Below, in pieces: positions 698 to 53,435 of a DNA stretch of 53,545 nt. Below the pieces are notes generated by a model. That model made no database searches. It was not told the origin of the DNA and worked only from the letters and a program-made list of their open reading frames with translations. Source of the stretch: a virus (lineage: Duplodnaviria; Caudoviricetes). The stretch spans positions 1-53,545 of IMG/VR virus record IMGVR_UViG_3300037248_000068; one strand, 5' to 3'. How positions within the stretch are numbered: the stretch's first letter is position 1; each line of letters starts with the position of its first letter. The position numbers and the translations under genes were made by a program.

Positions 698-931
698 ATG
701 CTTACCACGGCACAGCGGCGCGTGCTCAAAATAGCGGCCGAAGGTAAAGTGACGCGTACGTATCGAAGCGACGGCAACGTACTTAAAGGGCCGCCGGGAG
801 AAAACTTCGGACGTACGTTGTGGGATTTGGATCGCGCCGGCTTAATTGAAGACGAACGTATGAAAGGCTATCGGACCTGTTTTCGTCAAGTCATCACAGC
901 CGCGGGCCGCGCGGCCCTGGAGCAACCATGA
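698..931 (+). CDS. Small hypothetical protein, possibly winged-helix-like (77 aa)
   Basis: GGGAGG SD; 'LTTAQRRVL...ITAAGRAAL' pattern. Confidence 0.65.
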   Translation: MLTTAQRRVLKIAAEGKVTRTYRSDGNVLKGPPGENFGRTLWDLDRAGLIEDERMKGYRTCFRQVITAAGRAALEQP

Positions 932-1269
932 CCGCCGAACTACGCCACGACAGGTCAGCTTGGGAGCGCGTGACTGAAGGTCCGCGCTTCTTCCTTCAAG
1001 GTCGGTCGTACAAACACTTGATCGAATTCCGCCGCCCGTGCAAAACGTGCGGCGAGTCGTTCTCGATTTTCGTCACTCAAAAGATCGCCGACGAACGTGC
1101 CGATTCAAATTCGTTCGGCCTTGTCAATTGCGAGCTGCACAGGCGCGGCCGTATCCCAAAGCCCGACGTCTATGCGGCCGAACGCGAATTGCGGGCCGAG
1201 GTCGAAAAGCTGCTCGCCGAGAACGAACGGCTGAAAAACAACCAAAGAAAAATGCCTTGGGAGGCTTGA
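928..1269 (+). CDS. Zn-ribbon/coiled-coil protein, paralog of 53034-53435
   Basis: CKTC...CELH, C-terminal coiled coil, ends MPWEA; ATGA coupling. Confidence 0.7.
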   Translation: MTAELRHDRSAWERVTEGPRFFLQGRSYKHLIEFRRPCKTCGESFSIFVTQKIADERADSNSFGLVNCELHRRGRIPKPDVYAAERELRAEVEKLLAENERLKNNQRKMPWEA

Positions 1270-1324
1270 CAATCCCTAAGGAATTCCGTACGTGTGTGTA
1301 CGTTGAACCGCTGGAGAGCACGCC
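1266..1324 (+). promoter_or_regulatory. Early promoter/leader cassette 2
   Basis: TTGACA at 1266-1271, 17-nt spacer, TACGTG; GCTGGAGAGCA at 1310-1320. Confidence 0.7.
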
Positions 1325-1591
1325 ATGGCAAACATTCGACACTTCGCAACGCTGAACGGCGAAACGATTGTTCTTAACAGCACGATTGATAATCGCGGCC
1401 GCGAAGGTCGTTTTGGCTGGCACCCGGAAACTAAGACTTGGATCAAAGTTGAACGCGTTATAGAGTACAAGTCCTTTGCTTCGAAGCACGAATGCGACGC
1501 GCGGTGCCTCAATGCGACGGGCCGTGTCATGAAGTGTGAATGTTCGTGCGGCGGCAAAAACCACGGCAAGGGGGCTTTTAGCTGTGAGTGA
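1325..1591 (+). CDS. Cys-rich small phage protein (88 aa)
   Basis: HECDARC..A.G...CECSCGGKNHG metal-binding motif. Confidence 0.8.
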   Translation: MANIRHFATLNGETIVLNSTIDNRGREGRFGWHPETKTWIKVERVIEYKSFASKHECDARCLNATGRVMKCECSCGGKNHGKGAFSCE

Positions 1592-1760
1592 CGAATCATA
1601 CTGGACCTATCAAGCGGGGTCTAGAACCCCCGCTTTCGCCGAAGTACCGGCCAGCGCTTTTCGCGGCACGGAAGACCAATGGCATAGCTTGTCACCTGGC
1701 ATGCGACGCGAAATCGTCCGTACAGCACAGAAAAAATTTTTGTATCCTTGGCAAAAATAG
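1584..1760 (+). CDS. Hypothetical protein (58 aa)
   Basis: GTG start overlapping the upstream gene end; ends YPWQK. Confidence 0.6.
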   Translation: MSDESYWTYQAGSRTPAFAEVPASAFRGTEDQWHSLSPGMRREIVRTAQKKFLYPWQK

Positions 1761-1763
1761 TTG

Positions 1764-1829
1764 TTGACACTCCCTAGAGAACGCCGTACACATACGGACA
1801 TTGGAACGTTGAACCGCTGGAGAGCACAG
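1764..1829 (+). promoter_or_regulatory. Early promoter/leader cassette 3
   Basis: TTGACA at 1764-1769, 17-nt spacer, TACACA; GCTGGAGAGCA at 1816-1826. Confidence 0.7.
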
Positions 1830-2063
1830 ATGAAACGTCCGCATTCCGAAAACTGCGATACTTCGCACGCTGAATTCATTCTAAGCCGAATGGAAGCCGC
1901 GGCCCGTGCTGGCGACGCCAACAAGGCGTCATGCAATATCGCCGGCAAATGGCTTTCCGTATTTATCCGCGACGACGGCAGTATGGCGTACGGCTGGCAA
2001 GGTGGATACCCGAGCTGGGTAGTGTCGCGCGAAGTTGCACTTAGTGTTTTGGTGTGCCGATGA
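1830..2063 (+). CDS. Hypothetical early protein (77 aa)
   Basis: ATG directly after the conserved leader. Confidence 0.7.
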   Translation: MKRPHSENCDTSHAEFILSRMEAAARAGDANKASCNIAGKWLSVFIRDDGSMAYGWQGGYPSWVVSREVALSVLVCR

Positions 2064-2200
2064 TTCCCGCAAACGACAACCGCAACTATTCGAACCTTCC
2101 GACGTACCATGCCGTACGGATGGAAGCCACGCATATCGCCGCAGAGGCGCGTCACGCCGAATGGCTGGCGCAAATCGCAAAACTCAGGGGGCAGAAATGA
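2060..2200 (+). CDS. Small protein with N-terminal PANDN motif (46 aa)
   Basis: ATGA coupling at both ends; MIPANDNRNY...KLRGQK (below the ORF-track length cutoff). Confidence 0.6.
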   Translation: MIPANDNRNYSNLPTYHAVRMEATHIAAEARHAEWLAQIAKLRGQK

Positions 2201-2472
2201 CGGAGAACTACGCAGGCGCCCGAACACTCGCCACTGTTGAGCACTGTGGCTTAACATTCCGTATTGTGCGGCGTCGTTTTAAAGGAAAATTGTGGCGTAA
2301 GTATTTGACGCTTCTGTACGAAGATTTGCCAATCAGTGACGGTACATTTCCGCCGACAACGGACCCGCAAGAATGCGTTAAGTTCTATCGCGACATCCTG
2401 AGACGCGTGTGTCCAACCCGTGCCAGGACTGACGAGCAACTGGCAATTCTCAAAGCAAGGGGGCAGAAATGA
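2197..2472 (+). CDS. Hypothetical protein (91 aa)
   Basis: AGGGGG SD, ATGA coupling. Confidence 0.65.
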   Translation: MTENYAGARTLATVEHCGLTFRIVRRRFKGKLWRKYLTLLYEDLPISDGTFPPTTDPQECVKFYRDILRRVCPTRARTDEQLAILKARGQK

Positions 2473-3319: not shown

Positions 3320-5380
3320 ATGCCATTTCCTAAATCGATTCAGGAATTTTGGGACGAAGCTGTACGTCGCGGCTTCTTTCCGCTCGCGATAGCGCGGGGA
3401 AGTAAAGCCCCGATCGGGGAAGGTTGGTCGACCTGGACACATCCAATTCCGCACCCGGGAGCCGGCTCTGTAGGGCTGCGTTGTGGTGACGGAGGCCTGT
3501 CCGGCTTTGATGTTGACTGTTCCCAGCCTGAAATTTCCGCTCGATTACTCGCGGCATTTCGTAACGTTCTCGGCACGACAATCCCCGTGCGGTGGGGGCG
3601 AAAGCCCCGTTTCCTGATACCGTACTTTTTAACTGACGCTCCCGTACAGGGCCGTACGTTTACTTTTGCCACAAGCGGCGAAAAATTGCAGCTCATGGGC
3701 GGACAGTTCATTGCCTTCGGGCCGCACAAGGACACCGGCCAGCCTTACGAATGGGAGAACTGGGAGAGCGAGTGGCCGCGAATCACCACGGCACAACTGC
3801 AATATATCCTGGCCGAAGTCCCGATGCGCGCGGGCACGAGCCTTCGCTTTTCCGCCGAGCACGAAACGTGCACCGCGGAGGAAATCGCGGACGCCACGCC
3901 GCGCACGCAAGACGAATGGCAAGCAGGCCGCGACGCCGCACAGCGCTACTTAGGCATGCTTAAGCAAGAGTTGCTAGGACGCACGGAGGGCCGCGGGTCG
4001 ACGATTTTTGCACTTGTCGGCGTGCTGAAATTTGCCGCCATGCACAGCATGTGTACGCGCGAGGAAATCGAGGACGCCATCATAGGCGCCGGCCACAGCC
4101 TCACGGAGGGCATCGGCGGCCGGACGCTCGGTGAGGAAGTCAACCGCCATGACGAACTGCCGGTGTTGCGCGGCAACCTTATCATGCTGGCCGTGCTCAA
4201 TCGACGCATATTAAAGCATGCTTTATTTGACGCGATGCAAGCGCCGACGCTGATCGCGCGTACGGGCTTCGAAGTATCATTAGACGACAAAAGCGATGAA
4301 CTGCCATGGTTGCTGCACCAACGCGTACTTTGCGGCGAAGTCCATTTGTTCACCGGCCACTCAGGCGCTGGCAAGTCTACCGTTGTCACGGACCTTGCAA
4401 TAAGCATGCTTTGCGGGCGCGCGTGGCTTGACGCCGACATTGAACGTGCGGACGGTCACGTGTTATGGATTGCCGCAGAAGACGCGTACGGAACAGAACG
4501 CAGGGTGCGTCACATGCTACGGCAGGAACCGAATGGCGCAGCGCTCGCCGCACGCTTTCACGTCGTTCCCGGCGTGTCGGAACCGATGGCGTTTGAGCAG
4601 CAATACGTTGCCCAAGTGCAAGCAATGGCCGCAATGAAGATGCGCGTTGACCTGGGCGTAGTCGATACGTGGGGCGCTTCCGGATTATGCTTTGCCGACA
4701 ACGATACGGAAGCCGTCCTAAAGGCGATGTTCATCCTAAAACTGGCGGCAAAGCGTACAGAGACTGCCCTGATAGTTACCGATCACTTGCCGATGGGCAA
4801 CAGCGACGCGTGGCAGAAGGGCAACGGCGCCAAAACCGGAAACAGCGGTTTTGTATACCGAATCACCGCCGGGCGGCAGGATCTCATATCGATCGACTGC
4901 GGTAAAGCGCGCGGGTGTCCCAAACCGAAAAGTTACATCGGCCGAATCGCGTCCGAAAACTACGGGGTCGACAGCAAGGGGCGCCCGACCACCGTCAATA
5001 TATTTCGGCGCGACGATACGCCGTCAACGCAAGAGCGCGAGATATCGGCCGCGCTAAAGCTGGCCGGAATGCTGCCGGGCGTCGTCGCGACGGGCATGGA
5101 CGCGCTTCGGGCCGGCAGCATTGTCAAGTTTGAAAGCGTAGCAGAACTCGGCGACAAGCTGGCTGATGACGAAGCGCCCGGATTCGTCGTCAACAAGGAC
5201 GCCGCACTAAAAATGTTTGCGAAAGAGGGCCTGGAGGGCTTGATGAACAGCGGCTATCTCCGTACAATGCGGGGCGCGCCGTTTTTCGCCATCTATTCGC
5301 CGATGAATGGCGTAAAGCATGCTTTAACAATGCCGTGGCCGATCGAAGTGCCGACACAGCCGGGAGGCTTCCCGTGGTGA
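3320..5380 (+). CDS. Primase-polymerase / RepA-like (AAA_25) helicase fusion
   Basis: N-terminal prim-pol motifs (GSKAP..GW, VGLRCG, FDVD, GPH..TG.PY.W); Walker A GHSGAGKS, Walker B VVDT; start uncertain (3209-3320). Confidence 0.85.
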   Translation: MPFPKSIQEFWDEAVRRGFFPLAIARGSKAPIGEGWSTWTHPIPHPGAGSVGLRCGDGGLSGFDVDCSQPEISARLLAAFRNVLGTTIPVRWGRKPRFLIPYFLTDAPVQGRTFTFATSGEKLQLMGGQFIAFGPHKDTGQPYEWENWESEWPRITTAQLQYILAEVPMRAGTSLRFSAEHETCTAEEIADATPRTQDEWQAGRDAAQRYLGMLKQELLGRTEGRGSTIFALVGVLKFAAMHSMCTREEIEDAIIGAGHSLTEGIGGRTLGEEVNRHDELPVLRGNLIMLAVLNRRILKHALFDAMQAPTLIARTGFEVSLDDKSDELPWLLHQRVLCGEVHLFTGHSGAGKSTVVTDLAISMLCGRAWLDADIERADGHVLWIAAEDAYGTERRVRHMLRQEPNGAALAARFHVVPGVSEPMAFEQQYVAQVQAMAAMKMRVDLGVVDTWGASGLCFADNDTEAVLKAMFILKLAAKRTETALIVTDHLPMGNSDAWQKGNGAKTGNSGFVYRITAGRQDLISIDCGKARGCPKPKSYIGRIASENYGVDSKGRPTTVNIFRRDDTPSTQEREISAALKLAGMLPGVVATGMDALRAGSIVKFESVAELGDKLADDEAPGFVVNKDAALKMFAKEGLEGLMNSGYLRTMRGAPFFAIYSPMNGVKHALTMPWPIEVPTQPGGFPW

Positions 5381-5535
5381 GAGCTTACCACAATGAAAAC
5401 AATCCGTACGCCGCTCAATGGCTCCGCAACCTCATCGCCGCCGGGCATCTACCCGCAGGCGCCCTCGGAAACGCTATCGTCCCGCAAGTCGCGGCGGAAT
5501 TTATCAAAGCGTACGGTGATGCCGTGGGAGACATG
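5377..5535 (+). pseudogene. Internally deleted C5-cytosine DNA methyltransferase
   Basis: N-terminal 'AYHNENNPYAAQWLRNLIAAGHLPAG' fused directly to motif-X 'ALGNAIVPQVAAEFIKAY'; the catalytic PC motif and target-recognition domain are absent. Confidence 0.75.
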
Positions 5536-5543
5536 ATTTGCGC

Positions 5544-5795
5544 ATGTGGGAAAACAGCGATGGACGGCGTACGGTGCAGACTGGGGACGACGCACAAAGC
5601 GCCTATGCCGTGGGGGACGCAGTTATCTACCACAGAGACGCCAACGTTATCGGCACAGTCGTCCACGTCTCAACCGTCATCAGTCCCCTTATTTCCGTGG
5701 TTTGGGACGGCAACGACGGAGAGCCGATAATATATCCCATGAATACAACGCTACTGCGGAGGGCATGGCCGTGGGAAATCGAGGAAGGATCATAG
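5544..5795 (+). CDS. Hypothetical SH3/KOW-like small protein
   Basis: GGGAG SD; 'YAVGDAVIY...GTVVHV'; ends WPWEIEEGS; start 5538 or 5544. Confidence 0.55.
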   Translation: MWENSDGRRTVQTGDDAQSAYAVGDAVIYHRDANVIGTVVHVSTVISPLISVVWDGNDGEPIIYPMNTTLLRRAWPWEIEEGS

Positions 5796-5970: not shown

Positions 5971-6304
5971 GGGAAAGCATGCTTTAATGCCGTGGGAGGC
6001 GCCGGCAGACGAACCGCCCGAACGGTCGCTAGAAGAAACCGTGAAAGCGCTGCAAGCGGACATGGCGTTTGCCGTACGTCACACGGCTGTCCTTGTGCGC
6101 AGTGATAACGCGCTGCTGCGAATGGTCGTCAACACGGAGCGCGGGCAGCTCATGCCGCCGGGCGCAGTCACGTTCACAGACGGAAGCACCGTTGAGTTTC
6201 AAGACATCGGCATGTGTCAACTCGGCGTCCCTACCATGACGGTGCACGAGCTGGCGAAAGCCGTGTTCAGCAAGGCGACAGAACTGGGGTTGGAAATTGC
6301 ATGA
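5963..6304 (+). CDS. Hypothetical protein (start 5963 or 5987, MPWE...)
   Basis: ORF coupled to neighbours. Confidence 0.6.
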   Translation: MTEGKHALMPWEAPADEPPERSLEETVKALQADMAFAVRHTAVLVRSDNALLRMVVNTERGQLMPPGAVTFTDGSTVEFQDIGMCQLGVPTMTVHELAKAVFSKATELGLEIA

Positions 6305-6501
6305 GTAACCAGGGGCCTTGGGAATACCGCAGAGTCGAAATAGTTGTCGTGTACTACGCATGGGACGACATGCAAGGAGTCTATTTTTCTACGGAGGACC
6401 TTACGGAGTTGCTGAGACGCAGGCGTAGAGCGAGAACCCCTTTCGGTCCTCGAGAGCCCGTGGGGGCGTACTCGGTCGGACGCGTGAAGCCCGCAACATG
6501 A
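6301..6501 (+). CDS. Hypothetical protein (66 aa)
   Basis: ATGA coupling at both ends. Confidence 0.55.
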   Translation: MSNQGPWEYRRVEIVVVYYAWDDMQGVYFSTEDLTELLRRRRRARTPFGPREPVGAYSVGRVKPAT

Positions 6502-9590: not shown

Positions 9591-10007
9591 ATGAAACTCT
9601 GTTTTGACAGTATTGAGGAAGTGAAGGATTTCGTCGGGAGCCTCAAAGGCACGCGCGGCAAGAAAGGCGACGCCGACGACGGAGGCGACGCGAAAGCTCC
9701 GCCGCCAATTATGCCTCCAGTTGGTGGCGCCTCCACCGGATTTACGTCGCCGGCATCCGGTTTCATCGCACAAGGCGGCTTTCCGCCGGCTGGCGACCCT
9801 GCCGTTCAGGCACTCGTGACCCGCATCAACACCAAGATCGACGGCGCGCTTGCCAGCGGACAGCCACAGGACGCGGCGTTGCAGTGGTTCCGCGGGCAGT
9901 GCGGCCCGGAGGCCGCCGCAGCTACGATGGACCAAATCAAGACGGTGTTCCTGCCGCGGCTGACGCTGCCGGCGCTGGAGAATATCGCGAAGCTGATGGG
10001 CGCGTAG
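9591..10007 (+). CDS. Hypothetical replication-module protein (138 aa)
   Basis: TTGACG promoter at ~9532 and AGGAG/AAGGA SD; usual position upstream of DUF2800/SSB. Confidence 0.8.
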   Translation: MKLCFDSIEEVKDFVGSLKGTRGKKGDADDGGDAKAPPPIMPPVGGASTGFTSPASGFIAQGGFPPAGDPAVQALVTRINTKIDGALASGQPQDAALQWFRGQCGPEAAAATMDQIKTVFLPRLTLPALENIAKLMGA

Positions 10008-11192: not shown

Positions 11193-12059
11193 ATGGCACA
11201 ACGTCAATACGAGCCTGCTACGGTGTTTAACGCGAGAATCGCCGATCTTCGTCATCTTTGGGTTCCAAGTGACCAATATAAAGGCCAAAAAACTACCAAA
11301 CCAAACTACTTCGCAATGTTTCTCGTGAAAAAGACGCAAGCGACGTGGTACGCCGAGCCAGCGCTGGCCGGAGTCGCGCAAGCGTGCGGAAGAATTTACC
11401 AGAACAACCCGCATATTTTGCAGTGGCCTGTCGTCGACGGTGACATGCCGAGCCCGGAAGGCAAGTCATCCGAGTTCGCCAAGGGGCATTGGCTGTTTTC
11501 CGGTTCCAGCGGCAACCCGCCCAACGTCGAAATCGTGCAAGCCGGCGGGGCGCTCGTGAAGCTGACGAACAAAGTCGGTGTGAAATCCGGCGATTACGTG
11601 ATGTGCGGCGTGACAGCCGCTGTCAAGCAGAACGACCCGCGCGGCGTCAAGCTGTATCTGAACGCCGTCGTGTTCTCCAGCCCGGGCGAAGAAATCGTGT
11701 TTGCCAGCTCCGTCAGCGGCGCCGAACTGATGCAACAGGCGGCACGGCAAGGGCTCCAGGTTGCGGGCTTCGCACCTGGGGGCGGGTTTGCTCCGCAGCA
11801 AGGCGGCTTCCCGCCTCCGAACTACGATACGCGACACCCCGGCATCGGGGGCGGTCCGGCAAGCGGACCCGCGGGGGCGCCGGGTTTTACCCCTGGGGGG
11901 TTCGCCCCGCCTCCGGGACCTGCGCAAGCGGGCTTCGGTGCCGCTACGGCTGCCCCGGGCCAATTCCAGCCTCCGGGACCTGGATTTGCGGGGACGATAT
12001 CCCCTTCTAACCCAGCGCCGGGGCAGTTCACGCCGCCTGCGTGGCCGCAACAGCGCTGA
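11193..12059 (+). CDS. ssb: Single-stranded DNA-binding protein (DUF2815/Enc34-like) with Pro/Gly/Phe low-complexity tail
   Basis: P.VDGD, G.W.FS.SS..PP, SG.Y, GVKLYLNAV; lies between DUF2800 and PolA. Confidence 0.8.
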   Translation: MAQRQYEPATVFNARIADLRHLWVPSDQYKGQKTTKPNYFAMFLVKKTQATWYAEPALAGVAQACGRIYQNNPHILQWPVVDGDMPSPEGKSSEFAKGHWLFSGSSGNPPNVEIVQAGGALVKLTNKVGVKSGDYVMCGVTAAVKQNDPRGVKLYLNAVVFSSPGEEIVFASSVSGAELMQQAARQGLQVAGFAPGGGFAPQQGGFPPPNYDTRHPGIGGGPASGPAGAPGFTPGGFAPPPGPAQAGFGAATAAPGQFQPPGPGFAGTISPSNPAPGQFTPPAWPQQR

Positions 12060-12083: not shown

Positions 12084-12812
12084 ATGCTTTTCCTTGGCGA
12101 CTGCTTGGACATCATGCCGACGCTGCTGGCAGCTTCCGTTGATTTGATCCTGTGCGATCTTCCATACGGGACGACGCAAAATAAATGGGATAGCGTAATT
12201 CCGCTAGACCGGCTTTGGCGGGAATACTGGCGCATAGCGAAACCAAACGCGGCAGTCGTACTTACGGCACAGACGCCTTTTGACAAGGTGCTTGGCACGT
12301 CACAACTGTCGAAACTGCGGTATGAATGGATATGGGAAAAGACCGCCGGTACGGGGTTTCTAAACGCCGCCAAGATGCCAATTAAAGTTCACGAGAACGT
12401 CTTGGTGTTCTACGCACAGTTGCCGACGTACAATCCGCAAAAGACGGCGGGCCACGTTATCAAGCGTGTTAACGTGGCGCGATCGAGCGGCAGCAAAAAT
12501 TACAACATAATAAACGTGCGAAAGCCTTATGAAAGCACTGAACGGTTCCCGCGCTCCGTAATAGTGGTTGCTAAAGATAACCGACTTGCCGAAGATACGC
12601 ATCCCACGCAAAAGCCCGTCGCGCTCATGGAGTACCTAATCCGTACATACACCAACGAAGGTGATGCCGTGCTCGATAACTGCATGGGCAGCGGTACGAC
12701 GGGCGTTGCGTGTAACAACACGGGCCGCAAATTTATCGGCATAGAGCGCGATCCGACGTACTTCGAAATCGCACGCAAGCGCATCGAACCGTACCCGTGG
12801 GAAATGCCGTGA
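12084..12812 (+). CDS. DNA methyltransferase, beta-class N4/N6
   Basis: GDCL, DLPYG, HPTQKP, LDNCMGSGTTG. Confidence 0.92.
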   Translation: MLFLGDCLDIMPTLLAASVDLILCDLPYGTTQNKWDSVIPLDRLWREYWRIAKPNAAVVLTAQTPFDKVLGTSQLSKLRYEWIWEKTAGTGFLNAAKMPIKVHENVLVFYAQLPTYNPQKTAGHVIKRVNVARSSGSKNYNIINVRKPYESTERFPRSVIVVAKDNRLAEDTHPTQKPVALMEYLIRTYTNEGDAVLDNCMGSGTTGVACNNTGRKFIGIERDPTYFEIARKRIEPYPWEMP

Positions 12813-14743
12813 TTCCCGATAGCCTCCTAGTCGATGTCGAGACGCGCTCCCGCGTCGACCTGCGCAGCGCGGGCGCGCGGCGTTATTCTGCCGACCCGTC
12901 AACGCAAATCACGACGGCCACATGGCACTACCGCGGTCAGCTAAAGACGGCGTGCACCGTACATCCGCACTTAGGCACGCATCCCATAACCGCGCTATAC
13001 GATGACATTCGGGCTTGCAGTCGGTTCGTGGCACACCACGCGAATTTCGACGTAAACGTGCTTCGTCGACAAAATCCTTTCGCGGAAATTCCGCTCTCAA
13101 AAATCGATTGCACGATGGCGCGGGCTCAGTGCCTCGCGCTCCCCGGCGGCCTTGACGAAGTGTGCACCACGCTCGGCATTAAAGGCAAAGACCCGCGCGG
13201 TCGCGCGCTCGTAATGGCGACGTGCCGCCCGCAACGCGACGGCACTTTTAACGAGAACGTACAGACGTTCCGCGAGCTGCTAGAATACAACGTACAAGAT
13301 ACGCGGTGTTTGATTGAAGTCGACGCGCGCTTGCCACCGCTGTCCGCCGACGAACGACTGATCTTTGAGCGCACGTGGCGCAAGAACGAAATCGGGTTGC
13401 CGATCGATATTGAATTAGCCACCGCAATTGCGCTCCGTCGTCAAGAAATAGAGCAAGAGAGTACCGCAGCACTGATGGAGTTGACAAACAACGCCGTCAC
13501 CAAGCTATCGCAGCGCCAGCGCATAATCGAATGGTGCAACAGCGGCAACCGCGCTGCCGGCCTGGAGAGCACGCAAAAGCACATCGTTGCGGAAAAGCTT
13601 GCCGATGAGAATTTGCATCCCGACGTACGGATTGTTTTGGAGTTGTTGCAAGCCGAAGGCGGTTCCGCCCCGCTGAAAGCGCAAGCCTTGCTCGATAGGC
13701 ACGTCGGCGGATGGTACAAGGATGCGACGCGATACTTCGGAGCGCGGTCGGGCCGCGGCACGTCCGAAGGTGCCAACATGTTCAATATAGCAAGACCGTC
13801 CGGCAAGTACGATGGGCAGGACGGCCGCCCGACGATCGACAGCGTAATTCATGGGCTTAAACAAGGATTCCGGTACGGCAACACGGCGTTGACTGACTGC
13901 TTGCGAAGCACGATCGTAGCACCGCAAGGGTGGATGGTTTGCGACAACGACTTGTCAGGCGCGGAGTACCGTCTCGCCATGTGGATGGCCGGCGATACCG
14001 AACGGTTAAAAGTGTTGGCAACCGGCGACAATCCGTACATATACAACGCTATCAAAATGGGCGGGTGGCCCGAAGGATGGACCAAAAATAATCACTTGAA
14101 AGAATACACCATATACAAAAATGTCACGCTCGGCGGTAACTACCAGCTAGGCTGGAAAACTTTTCTAGCTCACATGCGCAAAGGCGGCATGGGTATAGAC
14201 GAAGTTAAAGCCCGATCCAGCATCGACGGGTATCGGCAGGCAAATCCGTTGCTCGTGCAGCTATGGTACGATCTTGCGGACGCATTCAAATTCGCGATCT
14301 ATGAAGCGCCTGGCCGCATCTTTCCTGCCGGTAAGATCGCATTCCAGAAAGACGCGCACGGAACTGTATGGATGCTGCTTCCATCTGGCCGTGCCGTACC
14401 GCACTACTCGGCGCATATCACGTACAACGGCGAAATGGCGTTCTTCCGGGGCAAGTACGGCGCCATGCTGCGGCAAAAGGCGTTTGGTGGATCGCTTCTG
14501 GAGATCGCTTGCCAGTCGATGACGCGAGACTTAGTAACGGCCGCAGAAGCCGACATTGAACGCGAGCTGCCCGACGCGGTGCTTTTGCTGGACGTGTATG
14601 ATAGCATACTAGCGCTGGCGCGGGGGGACGTAGCGAAAGAGCGCTCGGCGCAGATGCGCGAAATCATGAAGCGCCCGCGACCATGGACGGCGGGGCTGCC
14701 GCTGGGGTGTGAAGGCTATGAATCAGAAAGGATGAGGAAATAA
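12809..14743 (+). CDS. polA: Family A DNA polymerase with 3'-5' exonuclease
   Basis: Exo DVETRS / H.ANFD / YNVQD; motif A DLSGAEYR; motif B KNVTLGGNY (Leu762 type); motif C VYDS. Confidence 0.9.
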   Translation: MIPDSLLVDVETRSRVDLRSAGARRYSADPSTQITTATWHYRGQLKTACTVHPHLGTHPITALYDDIRACSRFVAHHANFDVNVLRRQNPFAEIPLSKIDCTMARAQCLALPGGLDEVCTTLGIKGKDPRGRALVMATCRPQRDGTFNENVQTFRELLEYNVQDTRCLIEVDARLPPLSADERLIFERTWRKNEIGLPIDIELATAIALRRQEIEQESTAALMELTNNAVTKLSQRQRIIEWCNSGNRAAGLESTQKHIVAEKLADENLHPDVRIVLELLQAEGGSAPLKAQALLDRHVGGWYKDATRYFGARSGRGTSEGANMFNIARPSGKYDGQDGRPTIDSVIHGLKQGFRYGNTALTDCLRSTIVAPQGWMVCDNDLSGAEYRLAMWMAGDTERLKVLATGDNPYIYNAIKMGGWPEGWTKNNHLKEYTIYKNVTLGGNYQLGWKTFLAHMRKGGMGIDEVKARSSIDGYRQANPLLVQLWYDLADAFKFAIYEAPGRIFPAGKIAFQKDAHGTVWMLLPSGRAVPHYSAHITYNGEMAFFRGKYGAMLRQKAFGGSLLEIACQSMTRDLVTAAEADIERELPDAVLLLDVYDSILALARGDVAKERSAQMREIMKRPRPWTAGLPLGCEGYESERMRK

Positions 14744-15254: not shown

Positions 15255-15763
15255 ACGAACAAGGTCTAGGCCGCTTCCTGATCCGCGACATCGGGCCGGA
15301 CGAAGGTGCAAAGGTGTTCGCGCTGACCGGCGACCGTACGGTGATGCGCTACATGGGGTTCCGCGCGCACGACTGCGTGAAAGACGCGACTGACCTGATA
15401 GCGACGTACCGCAATTCGCCGTCGAAGTGGCAGGCCGTGTGCGAGGACGGGGATCCCGCGGACATTCTCGGAATCGTCGGTTTCGAAGTCCAGGGGCACC
15501 AAGCGGCCGTAACGATCATGTTCCGCCGCGATTGGAAAGCGCGCGGCGCCGGCCGTGAATTCTCCGTGCCGTTCGTTCGATGGATTTTCACGCATCCGCA
15601 AATCTGGCGCGTGTGGGCGTACTGCCATCCCAGCAACACAGCCGTACAACGCGTCCTAGAGCGCATGGGCGCCGAGCGCGAGGGGCGGTTGCGGCGGTTC
15701 GCAATCTATCCGAACATCAGCTCGGAACCGCAAGACGCGTACGTATACGGCATCGTAAAATGA
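15251..15763 (+). CDS. GNAT N-acetyltransferase (RimJ/RimL-like)
   Basis: V.RYMG, ARGAGRE acetyl-CoA loop, RVWAYCHPSN.A..RVLER.G..REG.LR. Confidence 0.9.
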   Translation: MNEQGLGRFLIRDIGPDEGAKVFALTGDRTVMRYMGFRAHDCVKDATDLIATYRNSPSKWQAVCEDGDPADILGIVGFEVQGHQAAVTIMFRRDWKARGAGREFSVPFVRWIFTHPQIWRVWAYCHPSNTAVQRVLERMGAEREGRLRRFAIYPNISSEPQDAYVYGIVK

Positions 15764-16269
15764 GATGGCATCTTTCCCACCGCGCGGACCCGCTAGTGGC
15801 GCCGCTTGCTGACAGGCACTATAGCCGGCAGAAAATCGGTTCTCCGCAGTTCGTTCCGCCGGGACGTTGCGTCGTGCTGCATTCGGACTGCCGACGTGCG
15901 TTTTGGGTTACTTCATGGCCTTTTGCCGAGTACGTAAAACATGCATGGGGTGGGGCCTGGATATGCAGTGCCTTTCGATCTGAGAACGCCGGCAACGCGA
16001 CTGAATTAATTACGGACGCCGTTGCTGCAACGCGTGCGGCGTACGGCGAATCGCCGCAGCAAGGCATGGTTACATTCATCGACAGTCGAAAAGTAGAACC
16101 TATTATGACGCATGGCGTTCCATCATTCGGCCGTACGTGGGTAAAAGCGGGTTTTAAGTACGCCGGAAAGACGGCCGCGGGGCTTCTGGTATTTCAACTG
16201 CAGCCGGCGGATATGCCGCTGCCATCTTCGGCGCTCCCGCGTAATCCGTTTCCGTGGCCCGTACGCTAG
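15760..16269 (+). CDS. Conserved phage protein, possible Mom/GNAT-like DNA-modifying enzyme
   Basis: LADRHYSR...QFVPPGR, CSAFRSE, G.VTFID..KV, W.KAGF..G.T; function inferred. Confidence 0.55.
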   Translation: MRWHLSHRADPLVAPLADRHYSRQKIGSPQFVPPGRCVVLHSDCRRAFWVTSWPFAEYVKHAWGGAWICSAFRSENAGNATELITDAVAATRAAYGESPQQGMVTFIDSRKVEPIMTHGVPSFGRTWVKAGFKYAGKTAAGLLVFQLQPADMPLPSSALPRNPFPWPVR

Positions 16270-17547: not shown

Positions 17548-17763
17548 GTGAATCGTCACTGCCCCTACTGCTTCCGCTACTTCAACCCGGCACCGGACCC
17601 GATGTCGGCCGAGTGCCCCGCCTGCGGAGAAAATCTCAATGGACATTCCGTGGATCGTACTTACGATGCTCGCAGTGGCGTGCTTCGCGGTCTTCGAAGC
17701 ACGCGCATTCCGCCATCCCGAGCGACAGAACACGCTCTCGCGCACGATCTACAACGTCGGTAG
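17548..17763 (+). CDS. Small Zn-ribbon protein, overlapping the next gene
   Basis: GAGG SD, GTG; CPYC...CPAC. Confidence 0.45.
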   Translation: MNRHCPYCFRYFNPAPDPMSAECPACGENLNGHSVDRTYDARSGVLRGLRSTRIPPSRATEHALAHDLQRR

Positions 17764-17872
17764 CAAGTGGCCGCTGTCGATTTTTATTATGGGCATGTTC
17801 GCGGGCGGGCTCGCGGTACATTTCTTCTGGCATTGGTGCCCGGACCTGATGCCGCCGGGCGTCGGCGGCTAG
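17639..17872 (+). CDS. Small two-TM membrane protein
   Basis: GGAG SD; two hydrophobic segments; starts MDIPW. Confidence 0.7.
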   Translation: MDIPWIVLTMLAVACFAVFEARAFRHPERQNTLSRTIYNVGSKWPLSIFIMGMFAGGLAVHFFWHWCPDLMPPGVGG

Positions 17873-20853: not shown

Positions 20854-21480
20854 TCACACCCCTTTTCGCGCCGCCCACGGGGGAGACCATACGATATCCG
20901 CCGGTACGTCTTTGTCAGTGGTCGATACGCCCGCCAACTCCGCGGCGGCGTTCGGCAGCGTCACTGTACGCACAGAACCGGACGGAATGAAAGTGCCGTC
21001 GTAGTCAGCCGGTACGAACGTGTTGAGGTTCGTCACTTCACTCGCCACCGGCTGCGCCAGCGATTGCAGCCCGGCAAAGGAAGCCGTTTTGCCGAGCAGC
21101 GCATAGTACGGGGGCGCCCTCAGCAGCGCAGCAAGCCTCGTGGCGTCGTCTGGAGCCGCTGCGGGCGCGTTGGCATAGTCCGCCGTCGTGCCGCTGGACG
21201 GGCCGTCGCCCCATATGTCGTCAAGATTGTAACGGAGCGGCAGCGGTTCCGGCGGCGGTTCGATTGACTTGTCCGGCGCGACCTGAAAATCAAACACTTC
21301 CGGCCAGGGATCCCAGCACGAGCGCACGCCGCGGCCGGACGACTTGGTGCACACCAAGAGCCCCGTCAGCCGCTCCCGGGCGAGCGTGCGGTACGGCACC
21401 CGCGCATTGCAGCGCGAACAGGCGCCCCATGTTTCATAGGGCGCCAGCTTTGGCTTAGCCGTGTGTACGGGTGCGCCCAC
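20854..21480 (-). CDS. Hypothetical head-associated protein with N-terminal Cys motif
   Basis: GTG start MGAPVHT; WGACSRC...GLLVC...CWDP. Confidence 0.6.
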   Translation of the reverse strand: MGAPVHTAKPKLAPYETWGACSRCNARVPYRTLARERLTGLLVCTKSSGRGVRSCWDPWPEVFDFQVAPDKSIEPPPEPLPLRYNLDDIWGDGPSSGTTADYANAPAAAPDDATRLAALLRAPPYYALLGKTASFAGLQSLAQPVASEVTNLNTFVPADYDGTFIPSGSVRTVTLPNAAAELAGVSTTDKDVPADIVWSPPWAARKGV

Positions 21481-27833: not shown

Positions 27834-28031
27834 TTATTTGAATTTCTTTTCGATAATCTCAGCAAGTAGGCTCGTGACCGTGCGCCGGGTCGCCTTCGCC
27901 GCGCGATCCCACTTTGCTTTTTCCGCGCGGGTCAGCCGGACATCGACGCGGCACGGCCGGCTAACGGCTTTGACAGCTCTCCCCTTCGGCTTGGCCTTCG
28001 GCTTTTCCACTAAATTGCGGTCAGCTTCCAT
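27834..28031 (-). CDS. Ribbon-helix-helix DNA-binding protein
   Basis: VDVRLT.AEK..W.RAA......T.L; AGGAG SD, TTGACA at ~28095. Confidence 0.7.
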   Translation of the reverse strand: MEADRNLVEKPKAKPKGRAVKAVSRPCRVDVRLTRAEKAKWDRAAKATRRTVTSLLAEIIEKKFK

Positions 28032-42889: not shown

Positions 42890-43978
42890 TTAGCCTTCTG
42901 TTTGATGACATCGATCCAAGGAAACAAGCGCGCCGCGTGCGGAACATTTTGGCTGCTTCCGCGATAGTACGCTAAATCCACAATCACAGCCGTCACCGCA
43001 AGGTACAGCATAATCCCGCAGAATGCGGCCCGTAGCAGCCACAGCAAGCAACGAAGTGATCGGCATGTAGAGCGGCATTGAGTAGCAAGAGGCAACAGCA
43101 AACGCGACGACAACCGGCCACTCTTTGGACCCCGTACGCAAGAGTGCAACACTGAGTATGCTGAGCGGCAGAAGCGCGCCCATCCCGTATTCAAACAAGA
43201 GCTGCAGCGCATCATTGTGTGCGTGCCCCGGATACAAAACCTGACCCGCTTGCGTGATATTCACAGCAGAGAACGCACCCGGCCCCCAACCAAACCAGTT
43301 CAGCCCGTGCCATGCCACTTCCCAAATCAACATACGCTCTTGGTCCGACGTACGTCCCAACGGCATGAACAGGTAAAAAATACCCACTGCGGCGACTATC
43401 GCACCGAGCGGCCACGCCCGCCTGAATCGCAGGGCAATCAAGCCGACTGCCAAGGCGAGCCACGCACCGCGCGACTGAGAGAGGACAAGACCTGGCACGA
43501 GTGGGACTATCCACAGCCACATCCGCTCCGTCGCCAGCGCGACGATAAGCAAAGCCAGCACGGCGCCTTGCTGTACGCTGTTGACGTACAACCCCGGAGG
43601 TGCCGTGGAAGTGACGGGGAGAAGCTGCCATCCCGCGTATTGCAAAACAGCCACTGCCGACGATACTGCACCCCCGATCGCAAGACCCGCGTACAAACCT
43701 CGCAACGTTGTCAACGTCGATCCTAGCCACAGATTGAGCCCCATCAACACGACCAACCAAAACCCGAATACGGCATTGTACGGAACTACGCTGAACCAAA
43801 CACCGATCGCGGCGTACAAGATGAATAGCACGCCGAACCCATGCAACACCGTGAACGGCGCGCTGCGGAACACGGTAAAAATTGACAGAACCGCCAACAC
43901 GGGCCACTGCGTTGCGATATACGCACCCGTAATACCGGGCACGTAGCAGAGCGACACGATGGCGCCGAGCCAAACCAC
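42890..43978 (-). CDS. O-antigen ligase / O-oligosaccharyltransferase family (Wzy_C) membrane protein
   Basis: About 11 TM helices; 'SQSRGAWLA', 'S..ER..IW', 'G.G.G.F', 'HAHND.LQ...E.G'. Confidence 0.88.
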   Translation of the reverse strand: MVWLGAIVSLCYVPGITGAYIATQWPVLAVLSIFTVFRSAPFTVLHGFGVLFILYAAIGVWFSVVPYNAVFGFWLVVLMGLNLWLGSTLTTLRGLYAGLAIGGAVSSAVAVLQYAGWQLLPVTSTAPPGLYVNSVQQGAVLALLIVALATERMWLWIVPLVPGLVLSQSRGAWLALAVGLIALRFRRAWPLGAIVAAVGIFYLFMPLGRTSDQERMLIWEVAWHGLNWFGWGPGAFSAVNITQAGQVLYPGHAHNDALQLLFEYGMGALLPLSILSVALLRTGSKEWPVVVAFAVASCYSMPLYMPITSLLAVAATGRILRDYAVPCGDGCDCGFSVLSRKQPKCSARGALVSLDRCHQTEG

Positions 43979-46168: not shown

Positions 46169-46351
46169 ATGACTTTCCCTTGGGAGCAGTCCGCATCGCG
46201 TCTCGAATTAATCAAAGACCCGATAACAGGACTGTATCCGGGAGAGCGCGACGGCATTCCGGGCTTTTTGCGGCGCGTACGGATGCCGGATGGAACCGTA
46301 CAGATTGGACTCAGTCCTTCAAATAATCCTCAAGACTCAAGCCAATCGTAA
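46169..46351 (+). CDS. Hypothetical protein (60 aa, MTFPWEQ...)
   Basis: GGGAG SD. Confidence 0.55.
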   Translation: MTFPWEQSASRLELIKDPITGLYPGERDGIPGFLRRVRMPDGTVQIGLSPSNNPQDSSQS

Positions 46352-46619
46352 CTTCGGCCTTCGGCATCCACGAGTTGGCCTCGCGACGCATGGCGGCCCG
46401 TACGGTGCCGGCGACGCCGCTATCGCGTGCTCGCTCGAAAAGCAGTATCTCGCCCTCGGCAAGCGCCTTGTCGACCTCCGGATCGTCTTTGAGTGAGCTG
46501 GCCGCCACGCCAGCCGCCCGCGCTGCCAGTTCCAAGGGCACGCCTTCGCTAAGGCGCCGCAGCATGACAGCGCGTGGCGTCTCCTGCCTCTGCGTAAAGG
46601 GTGTCGACCACGGAAACAC
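46311..46619 (-). CDS. HTH protein, possible terminase small subunit
   Basis: 'L..G..L..AARAAGV' HTH followed by helices; starts MFPW. Confidence 0.55.
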   Translation of the reverse strand: MFPWSTPFTQRQETPRAVMLRRLSEGVPLELAARAAGVAASSLKDDPEVDKALAEGEILLFERARDSGVAGTVRAAMRREANSWMPKAEVTIGLSLEDYLKD

Positions 46620-51080: not shown

Positions 51081-51280
51081 GTTGCGGTCTCCAGTGCCCA
51101 GTGCATCCACGCCGTGGACTGCTCGCCGAAATGAAATTGCATGGGATGGTCGCCCCACTCGATTGCGACGATGATCTTGCCGCGGTGATTCTCGACATCC
51201 GCCACTGCGCCTGACGACCCGGACATCGCATTGCGGATACGGTCGCCCCGCTTAAGAGCGCGGAATTCGTCAATGGTCAT
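51077..51280 (-). CDS. Hypothetical SH3-like protein (67 aa)
   Basis: 'LKRGDRI.....G.V'; coupled. Confidence 0.65.
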   Translation of the reverse strand: MTIDEFRALKRGDRIRNAMSGSSGAVADVENHRGKIIVAIEWGDHPMQFHFGEQSTAWMHWALETAT

Positions 51281-51453
51281 CTGTCGGCCTGCCAGCTCGG
51301 CACGCTGGCATCAACTGTCGGCGCGGTTATCCAGAAGCCACGATCGTTGAGCACGAGCAAGCGACCGTCGTGCGTCATGCGCGTATCCGGCCTATCGCTA
51401 CGCGCCAGCTTGGCACGCTTTACCGAGTCAATTGTGCTCTTCCATGGGATCAT
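51277..51453 (-). CDS. Hypothetical protein (58 aa, MIPWKST...)
   Basis: GGAGGGG SD; ATGA coupling at both ends. Confidence 0.6.
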   Translation of the reverse strand: MIPWKSTIDSVKRAKLARSDRPDTRMTHDGRLLVLNDRGFWITAPTVDASVPSWQADR

Positions 51454-51620: not shown

Positions 51621-51653
51621 TTGTCTTCGTCCTTTGCGGGCCGTATTACGATG

Positions 51654-52055
51654 TCAGTACACCACGCGATCGGTTGCTTCCGGCTTGAACGACGCGACGG
51701 CGACAAGTGCCTCACCGTCTTTGCCGAGTTTTTCGATTGCTGCGGGCGATAGCAACTTGAACGCAGTTAAGCCGATCTCGTCAAACGCAAGCACCGCGGC
51801 CGTATCTTCATCGTTCCACTTGCGGTGCGTGATGCCAGGCTTGCGAGCGGCGCCTGGGAGCGTCGTACCTTTGGTGACGACGCGATAGGTGATTTGCGCG
51901 TCAAGCGCTTTCACGTAGCCGGCAACGTCCTGTACGGTCTTTGCCAGCGGCACGAGTTCGGCGTCGGCGATGGCTGCAGCGTCTAGCACCTGCAGCTCGG
52001 ACACGATCGCGTCGAGTGCGGATTTCAGTTCGGCGGGTGTGCGGTGATTGGACAT
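51654..52055 (-). CDS. Stand-alone paralog of the DUF2800 C-terminal domain
   Basis: KPG...R.WND...LSPA..EKLG..G....AVAS.KPEA shared with 10118-11059. Confidence 0.75.
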   Translation of the reverse strand: MSNHRTPAELKSALDAIVSELQVLDAAAIADAELVPLAKTVQDVAGYVKALDAQITYRVVTKGTTLPGAARKPGITHRKWNDEDTAAVLAFDEIGLTAFKLLSPAAIEKLGKDGEALVAVASFKPEATDRVVY

Positions 52056-52116
52056 TTGTGCTCTCCAGCGTTGAGTTGACGGTGTGAGGTCTAGCGTGAT
52101 TCGGCGGAAGTGTCAA
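52056..52116 (-). promoter_or_regulatory. Early promoter/leader cassette 5
   Basis: TTGACA-N17-TAGACC; GCTGGAGAGCA (52059-52069, reverse complement). Confidence 0.7.
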
Positions 52117-52265
52117 GGGGCGAAGCAAACGATCGCGACGAATGCCAGCGCTCCAAAAATCAGCGTAGCGCCGACGACCGTACGCGCAACCTTCACGCCG
52201 AACGCGAAAGTTATCAATCCGATGATGACGGCGAAGCCGATTGAGTGGCCGTGACGGTGCGACAT
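52113..52265 (-). CDS. Small two-TM membrane protein (50 aa)
   Basis: ATG after the conserved leader; 'GLITFAFG'. Confidence 0.7.
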   Translation of the reverse strand: MSHRHGHSIGFAVIIGLITFAFGVKVARTVVGATLIFGALAFVAIVCFAP

Positions 52266-52332
52266 GTTGCTCTCCAGCGGTTCGGTGTTTTCCAATGTCC
52301 GTACGTATGCGCCTTAAGGATTGCCGTGTCAA
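52266..52332 (-). promoter_or_regulatory. Early promoter/leader cassette 4
   Basis: TTGACA (52327-52332, reverse complement), TACGGACATTGGAA shared with cassette 3, GCTGGAGAGCA. Confidence 0.7.
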
Positions 52333-52772
52333 GCGCGTTTTTCAACTTTTCGCGAATATTTTCTTGCCGCGTCGGTTTGCATGCCGAGCAGCCAGGCCAG
52401 CTTGCCGATTTCGTACTTCGCGCAAATGGCGTCCCAGTGCGCCACGGCCGCTCGCCCATTGATTGGCGAAGCCGCGATGGCAATCCGTAGAGCTGACGCC
52501 GCAGGTTCCTCAGCAGCCGCCAGAACGCGTTGCATGCGCTTTGTGCGTTCGAAGTCCGACCGTGAAAGCCGGCCGATCGCAATCAGGTCGTCGACAACGC
52601 TCGCAAGCAATCCGCCGCACAGTTCCGCCAGCTCGACCGATAAGCCGTGTTGCTTGCAAGCCGACGTCAGAGCCGGTGATTGCATCCGCACAAGCCGACT
52701 GATGACAGCCGCGTTGTTAGCCGCTGTCTGCAGTGCGTACTGCGATAGCCGGATGGCCGGTAGGTTTGTCAT
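52329..52772 (-). CDS. Hypothetical helical protein (start 52772 or 52808)
   Basis: AAGGA SD before the ATG at 52772. Confidence 0.6.
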   Translation of the reverse strand: MTNLPAIRLSQYALQTAANNAAVISRLVRMQSPALTSACKQHGLSVELAELCGGLLASVVDDLIAIGRLSRSDFERTKRMQRVLAAAEEPAASALRIAIAASPINGRAAVAHWDAICAKYEIGKLAWLLGMQTDAARKYSRKVEKRA

Positions 52773-52809
52773 TTCGAAGTCCTTATCATCTTTCTTTCTC
52801 CCCGCCAAG

Positions 52810-53030
52810 CGAGGGGCGAAGCCCCGCAGCGCTCTACGGCGGTAATACTTTCTTTTCTTTATACACAGTGGCTCACGGTTTAACCGTGGCCCGTGAGTTC
52901 TTACGGCTGTGTGAGATCAAATTACGCAAATTGCGTGACAAACTTGTGGATAACTTGCGTAATTGCGTAGATGTGACACTAGTGAATCAGTGTATAAGGA
53001 TTGCGTAAACAGCGCAAACGCCAGGAGCGC
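52810..53030. promoter_or_regulatory. Divergent non-coding control region with a DnaA box and TTGCGT repeats
   Basis: TGTGGATAA at 52945-52953; TTGCGT in five copies; inverted repeat CACGGTT-T-AACCGTG. Confidence 0.55.
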
Positions 53031-53033
53031 GGA

Positions 53034-53435
53034 ATGAACTTGACAGGCACCACGATCCACGGATGGAACGTCGGCGAGGCGGTCACTAAATGGTGGCGGG
53101 GTAAGTTCGTGAGTCTCTACAGGCTGCGGAAAAACTGCGGACAGTGCGGCGTCGAAATGGTACTGGACGTAACGAAATCAGCCATTCAGGGCACGGCCAA
53201 GAATTCCGGCCTCCATATCATGCGGTGCACGGCATGCCGCGACGCTTCGCACTCGCAAGGCTCTACATCTCGACCGACCACCGTCACGACGACGGAGACC
53301 GCGGCCGCGGCCGGCCCAGTCGACACAGAAGAATTGGAACGCCTCCGCATGTCCAATAAGATCATGAAAGAAGAGTTGGACGGCCTCTACGCCGAATTGC
53401 GAGCCCTTAAGGCGAGCAAGCTCCCTTGGGAGTGA
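53034..53435 (+). CDS. Zn-ribbon/coiled-coil protein, paralog of 928-1269
   Basis: AGGAG SD; CGQC...CTAC; ends LPWE. Confidence 0.7.
   Translation: MNLTGTTIHGWNVGEAVTKWWRGKFVSLYRLRKNCGQCGVEMVLDVTKSAIQGTAKNSGLHIMRCTACRDASHSQGSTSRPTTVTTTETAAAAGPVDTEELERLRMSNKIMKEELDGLYAELRALKASKLPWE

Follow-up and report, generated by a model that had tools for sequence, protein, structure and literature searches.

Introduction

Shared terminal docking peptides are already known for sliding clamps, for the protein that binds single-stranded DNA (SSB) and for two proteins of phage T7. Here we compare these systems with a Pro-Trp (PW) peptide, called the tag below, that stands at 16 protein ends in a phage genome of 53,545 nucleotides (Duplodnaviria; Caudoviricetes; IMG/VR record IMGVR_UViG_3300037248_000068); this whole stretch of DNA is referred to as the window. 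The C-terminal tip of bacterial SSB is acidic and ends in IPF, and the gp45-binding tails of T4 and the PIP boxes are further clamp-binding peptides beside those of the beta-clamp. The clamp-binding motif (CBM) of the beta-clamp is given in one report as Q-phi-x-[L/M]-[F/L] or Q-phi-x-[L/M]-x-[F/L], with weaker binding in E. coli when the last Phe is replaced by Trp, and the same report places CBMs in C-terminal tails, at the N-terminus of Hda and in internal loops (PMC11139829). In T7, acidic helicase tails are described as binding basic patches on the polymerase, their removal cutting processivity threefold (PMC8472574), and the tail of gp2.5 is described as interacting with both the polymerase and the primase-helicase (PMC5686142).

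Results

A Pro-Trp tag is enriched at protein ends

We curated 86 genes (16,792 aa) in the window on the basis of a periodic Markov score, ribosome-binding sites, overlaps of starts and stops, and conservation in G001, a relative of 52.5 kb with about 70% nucleotide identity to the window. Their products contain 35 PW dipeptides, compared with 18.2 expected from composition. Sixteen ends carry PW within the first 8 residues (7 N-terminal cases) or the last 10 residues (9 C-terminal cases), or about one protein in six. PW dipeptides in the interior number 19 against approximately 17 expected, so the whole excess is terminal.

The initial annotation of this DNA had listed about 16 proteins with a hydrophobic-Pro-Trp motif at one end, had put the chance expectation at about 2, and had proposed a permutation test of termini against interiors. 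All of the peptides that it quoted are present, 15 of the 16 at the end of a plausible gene. In a test of this kind, 3000 within-protein shuffles gave a mean of 1.56 ends with PW and a maximum of 7, compared with the 16 observed. The residue before PW is hydrophobic at 14 of the 16 ends (shuffle mean 0.53, maximum 4), and neither observed value was reached by any shuffle. When the 35 dipeptides were placed randomly within their own proteins, 3.8 terminal cases were expected and none of 200,000 simulations gave more than 13. One listed case had to be dropped: the FPW of a nested open reading frame (ORF) at 42886, with PW 10 residues from the stop, lies out of frame inside a conserved Wzy-like gene (42890..43978; 59% identity to the ortholog in G001). 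The ORF at 5393..5536, ending in MPWET, was added.

Trp alone is not significantly enriched at the protein ends of the window (N-termini, 14 observed and 11.5 expected; C-termini, 24 and 16.4), and a general enrichment of terminal Trp was therefore rejected as the cause. An artefact of gene calling was also rejected, since the enrichment persists in motif-blind calls and C-terminal tags are fixed by their stop codons. For this purpose an automatic gene caller, blind to the motif, was applied to 18 complete genomes, the window and 17 relatives from its clade (1400 proteins, 518 families after clustering); the comparison set included 5 genome fragments in addition. Judged by the 86 curated genes, the automatic caller missed 10, including 5 carriers, and chose another start for 10 others. 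It nevertheless found 10 tagged ends in the window compared with 1.5 from shuffles, and 6-12 in each of the 18 genomes compared with 0.9-1.9. In 15 of these genomes there are more tagged ends than in any of 200 shuffles; in the other three (G012, G016 and G019) the number equals the shuffle maximum. Terminal and interior PW also differ in their surroundings across the 1400 proteins, with a hydrophobic residue before PW in 80% versus 26% and Glu after it in 36% versus 6%. These results show that the enrichment of the tag at protein ends is real and strong.

The tag is kept at the same ends in relatives

The initial annotation had asked whether orthologs in relatives keep the motif, and they do, at the same ends. 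Orthologs carry the tag amid divergent flanks and unrelated proteins have gained it independently, as expected of a short linear motif. The window's carriers, their orthologs and the tallies of tagged family members are collected in Table 1. Most carriers are proteins that handle DNA, in agreement with the earlier remark that many carriers act on DNA. Several very small proteins in families of the clade have two or three tags, and G002 has a tagged ortholog (MSNYPW) of 27834..28031, a protein that lacks the tag in the window. In the genomes of the clade, the tag is always absent from the polymerase, SSB, SNF2 helicase, nuclease, portal candidate and capsid protein.

Table 1 Tagged proteins of the window, two untagged replication proteins, and one tagged family from relatives. 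C-terminal peptides are written up to the last residue unless marked as upstream. Family tallies come from automatic calls in the 18 complete genomes; those of the N-terminal families 5987, 46311 and terminase hinge on start calls.
Protein	Coordinates	Strand	Tag and position	Basis or family match	Orthologs and homologs in relatives	Family members tagged
Primase-helicase (Prim-Pol + AAA_25)	3320..5380	+	C-terminal tail: upstream MPWP 5330-5341, terminal FPW 5369-5377	Pfam, PHROGs	..IPWA..MPWA, ..MPWA..MPWQ, ..MPWT..MPWQK	18/18
Large terminase	28092..29621	-	N-terminal (M)NYPWT 29604-29615, GTG start	PHROG phrog_2	MPWE, MFPWE, MQYPW, MLPWE..MPWE	13/18
N6/N4 DNA methyltransferase	12084..12812	+	C-terminal YPWEMP 12792-12803	Pfam N6_N4_Mtase	PMPWEI in G006, at only 33% overall identity	5/5
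Core 102-aa protein, no assigned function	46311..46619	-	N-terminal (M)FPWS 46605-46616, GTG start		Counterpart in 17/17; MFPWF, MFINPW..TPWE	14/18
Core 105-aa protein, no assigned function	5987..6304	+	N-terminal MPWE 5987-5998 (residues 9-12 from alternative start 5963)		Counterpart in 17/17; begin MPWE or (T)YPWE beside an indel	14/18
83-aa protein	5544..5795	+	C-terminal WPWEIEEGS 5766-5777		End WPWE, MPWEQ, MPWEQSSLG; N-terminal copy too in relatives	9/9 (C-terminal), 5/9 (N-terminal)
Zn-ribbon + coiled-coil early protein	53034..53435	+	C-terminal LPWE 53421-53432		RMPWE, KMPWS, tails of different length	18/18
Paralog of 53034..53435	928..1269	+	C-terminal MPWEA 1252-1263		Homolog in 8/17; G007 ortholog ends KMPWE	
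58-aa protein	1584..1760	+	C-terminal YPWQK 1743-1754	phrog_33250, E = 3e-12	No homolog in 17 complete relatives	
169-aa protein	15760..16269	+	C-terminal FPWPVR 16249-16260	phrog_24928	WPWI.., MPWE, YPWRVRN	4/4
77-aa protein, probably membrane	17639..17872	+	N-terminal MDIPWI 17645-17656; weaker case, runs into hydrophobic segment		Homolog in 5/17	2/6
60-aa protein	46169..46351	+	N-terminal MTFPWE 46175-46186; internal DGIPGFLRRV		Two tag copies in relatives	3/3
Core 208-aa protein, virion gene block	20854..21480	-	C-terminal SPPWAARKGV 20872-20883; Pro precedes PW		PPWSAVKGI, PPWATVKGV	17/18
Putative 47-aa ORF	5393..5536	+	C-terminal MPWET 5519-5530; its TGG-GAG is 7-13 nt before the TTG or ATG start of the next gene			
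Putative 66-aa ORF	6301..6501	+	Begins MSNQGPWE 6313-6324; Gly before PW	ATGA overlaps at both ends		
58-aa ORF	51277..51453	-	Begins MIPWK 51439-51450	Strong GGAGGGGAG ribosome-binding site		
gp2.5/Enc34-type SSB	11193..12059	+	Untagged; tail ends PPAWPQQR	Pfam Enc34_ssDNA-bd		
Family A DNA polymerase	12809..14743	+	Untagged	phrog_17		
ParB-like (DUF6551) protein, absent from window						5/5

Wider tallies were made on the 120 listed clusters of database homologs for each of the primase-helicase, the large terminase and the polymerase. Among the primase-helicase clusters listed, PW falls within the last 8 residues in 109/120. The residue before it is F in 54, M in 36 and Y in 7, and in 74 exactly one residue comes after it; a second P-[W/F/Y] stands about 15 residues upstream in 99/120. 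The listed large terminase clusters have PW in the first 40 residues in 104/120, in 1 to 2 copies that are often in tandem. Fifteen of the 16 PW-less clusters are shorter and begin at or just before a conserved RAKLRDF segment, and may thus be truncated gene calls; the remaining one has FPY twice. The polymerase homologs listed have PW in the first 12 residues in 3/120 and in the last 10 residues in 0/120.

The tag is a trait of this clade, since only 3/119 distant full-length Prim-Pol homologs end in PW. Two of these three, P0241 and P0250 (57% and 37% identity), are clear tag carriers, and a search through P0250 for a more distant tagged genome found nothing in viral_contigs or metagenome_contigs. 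In Bordetella phage BPP-1, a control with a comparable replication module, PW occurs 12 times where 10.5 are expected, and the 49 annotated coding sequences show a single tagged end; on this single control genome, a general feature of phage protein ends was rejected. The clade itself is large, with more than 100 clusters each of primase, terminase and polymerase at 90% identity.

The peptide, not the DNA, is under selection

A sequence such as CCN-TGG-GAG at gene borders could in principle act on the nucleic acid, as a Shine-Dalgarno site, a translational-coupling element or an element bound by protein or RNA, and TGG-GAG serving as the Shine-Dalgarno site of the next gene had been named in the initial annotation as the outcome that would undo its proposal. 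The distance from the TGG of a C-terminal tag to the next start is 8 nt once (methylase to polymerase), 15-16 nt twice and 22-688 nt in six cases, so that TGG-GAG or TGG-GAA could account for at most 3/9 of the C-terminal tags, those lying 8-16 nt from a start, and the tag survives this test. The seven N-terminal tags lie inside the 5' ends of their own genes and cannot be their own Shine-Dalgarno sites. Peptides imposed by Shine-Dalgarno sequences do exist in this genome, with RGQK or RRQK endings three times and ERMRK endings twice, and the palindrome AAAGCATGCTTT adjoins three tags, although it occurs 5 times and only 3 of these are beside a tag. A manual count of CCNTGG gave about 75 and about 70 for the plus and minus strands, respectively, against our own composition estimate of about 83 per strand, and thus no excess.

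Codon usage, too, bears on the level of selection. Orthologous tags use CCG, CCT, CCA or CCC for Pro and GAG or GAA for Glu, and the residue before PW varies among M, F, Y, L and W between orthologs while P-W is kept. Judged from this synonymous variation, selection is on the peptide rather than on the DNA, which extends the earlier observation of variable Pro codons to four codons for Pro, two for Glu and a changing preceding residue. Within the window the Pro codon of the tag is CCT in 6/16 cases, compared with 108/951 Pro codons genome-wide. On codon variation, distances to the next start and the lack of a CCNTGG excess we rejected a DNA-level or Shine-Dalgarno origin; the nucleic-acid explanation is largely refuted and we consider it very improbable.

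The Shine-Dalgarno effect is real in this genome, yet it is not the source of the Pro-Trp tags. Instances are the RGQK and RRQK C-termini of three consecutive genes (GGGGGCAGAAATGA junctions, 2060-2923) and the ERMRK C-termini of the polymerase and the next gene (14743/14949), imposed by overlapping ribosome-binding sites.

The 12-nt palindrome AAAGCATGCTTT is found exactly at 4213, 5314, 5974, 9082 and 12079 and with one mismatch at 4401, compared with 0.07 expected. All copies are within the replication module, and three are just upstream of tag codons, in two reading frames. A dimeric regulator could bind this palindrome, or it could be an element of an origin.

Signs of a proposed common reader of the tag

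An AlphaFold2 model of the primase-helicase, built on a 55-sequence alignment, gives its tail (residues 661-686) a pLDDT of about 43-48 and no secondary structure, and does not dock it in cis; docking of the tail on its own protein was thus tried as an explanation and not seen. The N-termini of the terminases are Pro-rich and of variable length and copy number, and together with the modelled primase tail they provide the disorder that a short linear motif is expected to have.

The residue before PW follows lineage habits. It gives YPW in G009 and G011, GPW in G010 and G021, FPW in G013-G016 and G022, and MPW in G001, G006, G012, G017, G019 and G020. Across families of the same genome, this residue agrees in 112/264 pairs compared with 68.7 expected, a value that 0/5000 within-family permutations reach. 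With one genome taken per cluster of at least 80% primase identity, the agreement is 78/198 compared with 48.2 and is reached by 1/5000 permutations, in a test that keeps some phylogenetic structure and that lineages deeper than the 80% clusters could inflate. Such a concerted shift, seen in sequence comparison, fits one common partner.

The tags could instead have no common reader, with separate partners or capping of each protein by its own tail, under a general preference of the clade for Pro-aromatic tail peptides. The SSB tail with its related but distinct aromatic tip, the upstream primase motif that tolerates F, Y or W, and the PPW of 20854..21480, which looks like a separate conserved motif, would all suit this explanation. 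It leaves unexplained why unrelated families of one lineage change the residue before PW together, small proteins of 2-3 tags make little sense without a shared reader, and the primase tail is undocked on its own protein in the model. We give it little credence. As for 20854..21480, its PPW is kept in orthologs as part of a longer motif and, on that pattern, may be unrelated to the tag.

We infer that the tag is a short linear docking motif, [M/F/Y]-P-W-[E/Q/other], that binds one common partner and is read by it, and assign this reading a probability of about 0.65. The initial annotation had already proposed a shared docking or localisation tag that brings phage proteins to one hub, such as a replication/packaging compartment, a proposal that is partly supported. 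In the proposed mechanism, disordered tails at the N- or C-terminus would present the tag, in some cases two or three times. Unrelated proteins with roles on phage DNA or in host takeover would have acquired it independently within the clade. Its carriers are the primase-helicase, the large terminase, two methyltransferase families, the ParB-like protein of relatives, Zn-ribbon early proteins and several tiny proteins that consist of little besides tags. A single partner would read all tags through a hydrophobic pocket that takes the Trp, and would gather replication, DNA-modification and packaging proteins at one place, where small multi-tag proteins might compete or bridge.

Besides the possible inflation of the covariation test, several points weigh against this reading. 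The residue after PW shows no covariation, with 754 and 367 of 5000 permutations reaching the observed value. A three-residue core is short for specific binding, so that flanks or multivalency must contribute. We know of no established precedent, outside clamp coupling of the T4 type, for a terminase and a primase sharing one partner. Three small carriers (5393..5536, 6301..6501 and 51277..51453) are without homolog in the 17 complete relatives, and the call of each is based solely on an ORF plus a ribosome-binding site or an overlap of start and stop codons. The N-terminal counts hinge on start calls, the automatic caller having taken 5963 rather than 5987, and two cases are off-consensus, the PPW in 20854..21480 and the GPW in 6301..6501.

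A reader of another kind would be a protease. Bacterial degrons such as the ClpXP motifs are short, may be N- or C-terminal and are found on proteins without relation to each other, and a host or phage AAA+ protease or adaptor might read the tag as a degron that times the removal of early, replication and packaging proteins. The position at protein ends, the disorder and the large number of small early carriers fit a degron equally well, and a single reader would likewise give covariation of the residue before PW. However, the phage needs its large terminase, primase-helicase and methylases until late in infection, the second tag copies on terminase and primase would destabilise essential enzymes, and no degron class known to us matches the motif. 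A degron is an unlikely account.

Some of the small proteins with N-terminal Pro-Trp tags also have a D-x-IP[G/A/T]FL[K/R]R peptide, as DGIPGFLRRV in the window (46169-46351, plus strand) and as DDIPGFLKR, LAIPAFLKRD or LEIPTFLKRD in relatives (G010, G021, G015 and G022). It closely matches the conserved C-terminal tail of FtsZ (..DYLDIPAFLRKQAD at the end of the E. coli protein). The FtsZ tail is described as binding FtsA, ZipA, MinC, SlmA and ClpX (PMC7999717). By this likeness, the tagged small proteins may be FtsZ-tail mimics that act as division blockers or adaptors.

These proteins also bear on another possibility, namely that the tag is a targeting signal that loads its carriers into the procapsid for co-injection or sends them to a membrane or divisome site. 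Cargo-loading peptides, for example encapsulin cargo peptides and the capsid-targeting sequence of T4, are short and terminal like the tag. Injected methylase and host-takeover proteins would be useful, one protein of the structural block ends in PPW, and small carriers that join the tag to an FtsZ-tail-like peptide would suit an adaptor to FtsZ-tail-binding membrane proteins. The terminase, though, works on the capsid from the outside, replication enzymes are the main carriers, capsid, portal and tail proteins are untagged, and no prohead-protease site stands beside the tag. We regard targeting as improbable, and return to the docking motif with one partner.

Candidates for the proposed partner

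By analogy with T7, the untagged family A DNA polymerase would be the first candidate among phage proteins for the partner, although on its own an unlikely one; its lack of a tag is compatible with that role without being evidence of it. A host protein has about the same chance, which still leaves it a doubtful choice. The core of the gp2.5-type SSB seems a less probable partner, and what remains of the probability falls to another core phage protein.

One such protein is the core 138-aa product of 9591..10007, which in an AlphaFold2 model starts with a short helix, continues as a disordered linker and ends in a domain of four helices. The linker has conserved AP-x-P-[LIM]-x-PP and [G/A]FP motifs. 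Foldseek found no PDB match to the fold at E <= 0.001, the best Z in a wide VIA-align search was 5.6, to generic helical bundles, and the ESM Atlas yielded nothing usable. Examined as a possible hub by model and fold searches, the protein gave no lead either way; it may be an adaptor of the replication module.

Genome context

Bases 1-127 of the window are repeated as bases 53419-53545, so that bases 6-17 and the LPWE case at 53435 are one site. The record is placed by IMG/VR among those with direct terminal repeats, and the window is a complete phage genome, circular or terminally redundant, with a GC content of about 59%. PHROGs and Pfam assign a Prim-Pol/AAA_25 primase-helicase, an SNF2-type helicase, a DUF2800 nuclease, an Enc34/gp2.5-type SSB, a family A DNA polymerase, two methyltransferases, a GNAT acetyltransferase, the large terminase, capsid, head-closure and tail-fibre proteins, and a 1302-aa protein with a lysozyme domain. 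Neither database recognised a sliding clamp or RNA polymerase gene among the phage proteins. A relaxed Pfam scan of eight carriers and neighbours gave nothing above noise, Rfam gave no match, and no tRNA genes were found. No cultured relative was present in the phage collection (best match 29% identity over a quarter of the primase), and no related prophage in the GTDB representative genomes, with one weak, unrelated match only. Two database proteins from the primase and terminase searches are labelled as metagenome-assembled genomes of Planctomycetota, which is weak binning evidence only.

The 15-mer AACCGCTGGAGAGCA occurs four times compared with 0.05 expected, at 1306-1320 and 1812-1826 on the plus strand and at 52059-52073 and 52268-52282 on the minus strand. 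Each copy is just upstream of an early-gene start, on both divergent arms, and resembles a leader or ribosome-binding-site cassette common to these genes. TTGACA hexamers at about 1270 and about 1770 lie upstream of AACCGCTGGAGAGCA copies and were not scored by the consensus promoter scan; the sigma-70 scan of 1-3300 was not above shuffles.

A nine-gene block on the minus strand (29624-37480) is without counterpart in the 17 complete relatives and is probably a host-range or accessory cassette. It encodes a 795-aa protein with a weak Sortilin/BNR match, a tail-fibre-like protein with a Peptidase_S74 chaperone domain and a GH108 lysin; six of its products have signal-peptide-like N-termini, as does a seventh protein at 26959..27753. 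A Wzy_C (O-antigen ligase-like) membrane protein at 42890-43978 (minus strand), common to 8/17 relatives, may indicate surface modification of a Gram-negative host. In some polymerases of the clade (P0395, P0452, P0502, P0503, P0505 and that of G010), the conserved EIAC/QSMTRD segment holds an insertion of about 260-290 aa with intein-like boundaries.

Discussion

Among open-access papers and preprints we found no description of such a phage-wide tag. What appears to be new is a tag that is used across a phage at either protein end and stands also on many early proteins, the methylases and the terminase. Should there be one reader, it would be the organising centre of replication and packaging in an abundant group of uncultured phages, and the tag would be a direct handle on that reader, a simple rule predicting which small proteins plug in, and a natural example of a docking code drifting between lineages. 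A bolder and tentative version, for which we would claim only a limited chance, is a private docking code, shifting by lineage and read by one reader, that couples replication, modification and packaging, with multi-tag proteins as competitors or scaffolds and FtsZ-tail mimics tethering the DNA factory to the membrane or division site via anchors of the FtsA or ZipA type.

The initial annotation had likened the motif to the IPF docking tip of SSB. The Pro-aromatic core of this comparison stands, since both are carried on a disordered tail and many primase-helicase homologs have an upstream IPF, IPW or IPY. The rest of it does not. The tag is not acidic, is often N-terminal and not necessarily at the extreme C-terminus, and is absent from the phage's own SSB, whose tip differs. 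In bacteria, moreover, one protein bears the peptide and many bear pockets, whereas here many proteins bear the peptide. Acidic tails have been described for T7-type SSBs in the Enc34 paper. The SSB tails of the 18 genomes are long, rich in Pro, Gly, Gln and Asn, and not acidic, and they end in [P/A]-[F/W]-x-x-R, with a variant in G018. Their tips, including NPFGPR, NPFAPR, GAFPGR, GAWPSR, QAWPQR and PAWPQQR, share only a Pro/Ala-aromatic core with the tag, and identity of the tag with the phage's own SSB tip was rejected.

The sliding clamp offers a parallel in principle, as one hub whose pocket reads short hydrophobic peptides in disordered tails or loops of unrelated DNA enzymes. The tag, however, has no Gln and is built on Pro-Trp, so that it does not follow the CBM sequence; no clamp gene was recognised in the phage by PHROGs or Pfam; and the polymerase, the classic clamp client, is untagged.

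T7 resembles this phage in its machinery, which by PHROGs and Pfam is likewise clamp-less and combines a family A polymerase, a hexameric primase-helicase and a gp2.5-type SSB. In both, the flexible C-terminal tail of the primase-helicase ends at or beside an aromatic residue, and the tail code is present on more than one protein. Unlike those of T7, the phage primase tails are not acidic (for example ..PIEVPTQPGGFPW and ..TKLESFPWQ). The tag is also N-terminal (7/16) and extends to terminase, methylases, a ParB-like protein and many small proteins, and the phage SSB carries another tip, in contrast to a C-terminal peptide shared by helicase and SSB. Taking these likenesses and differences together, the best reading by analogy is that the tag would work like the T7 tail on polymerase and like the clamp-binding motifs, but belong to neither family.

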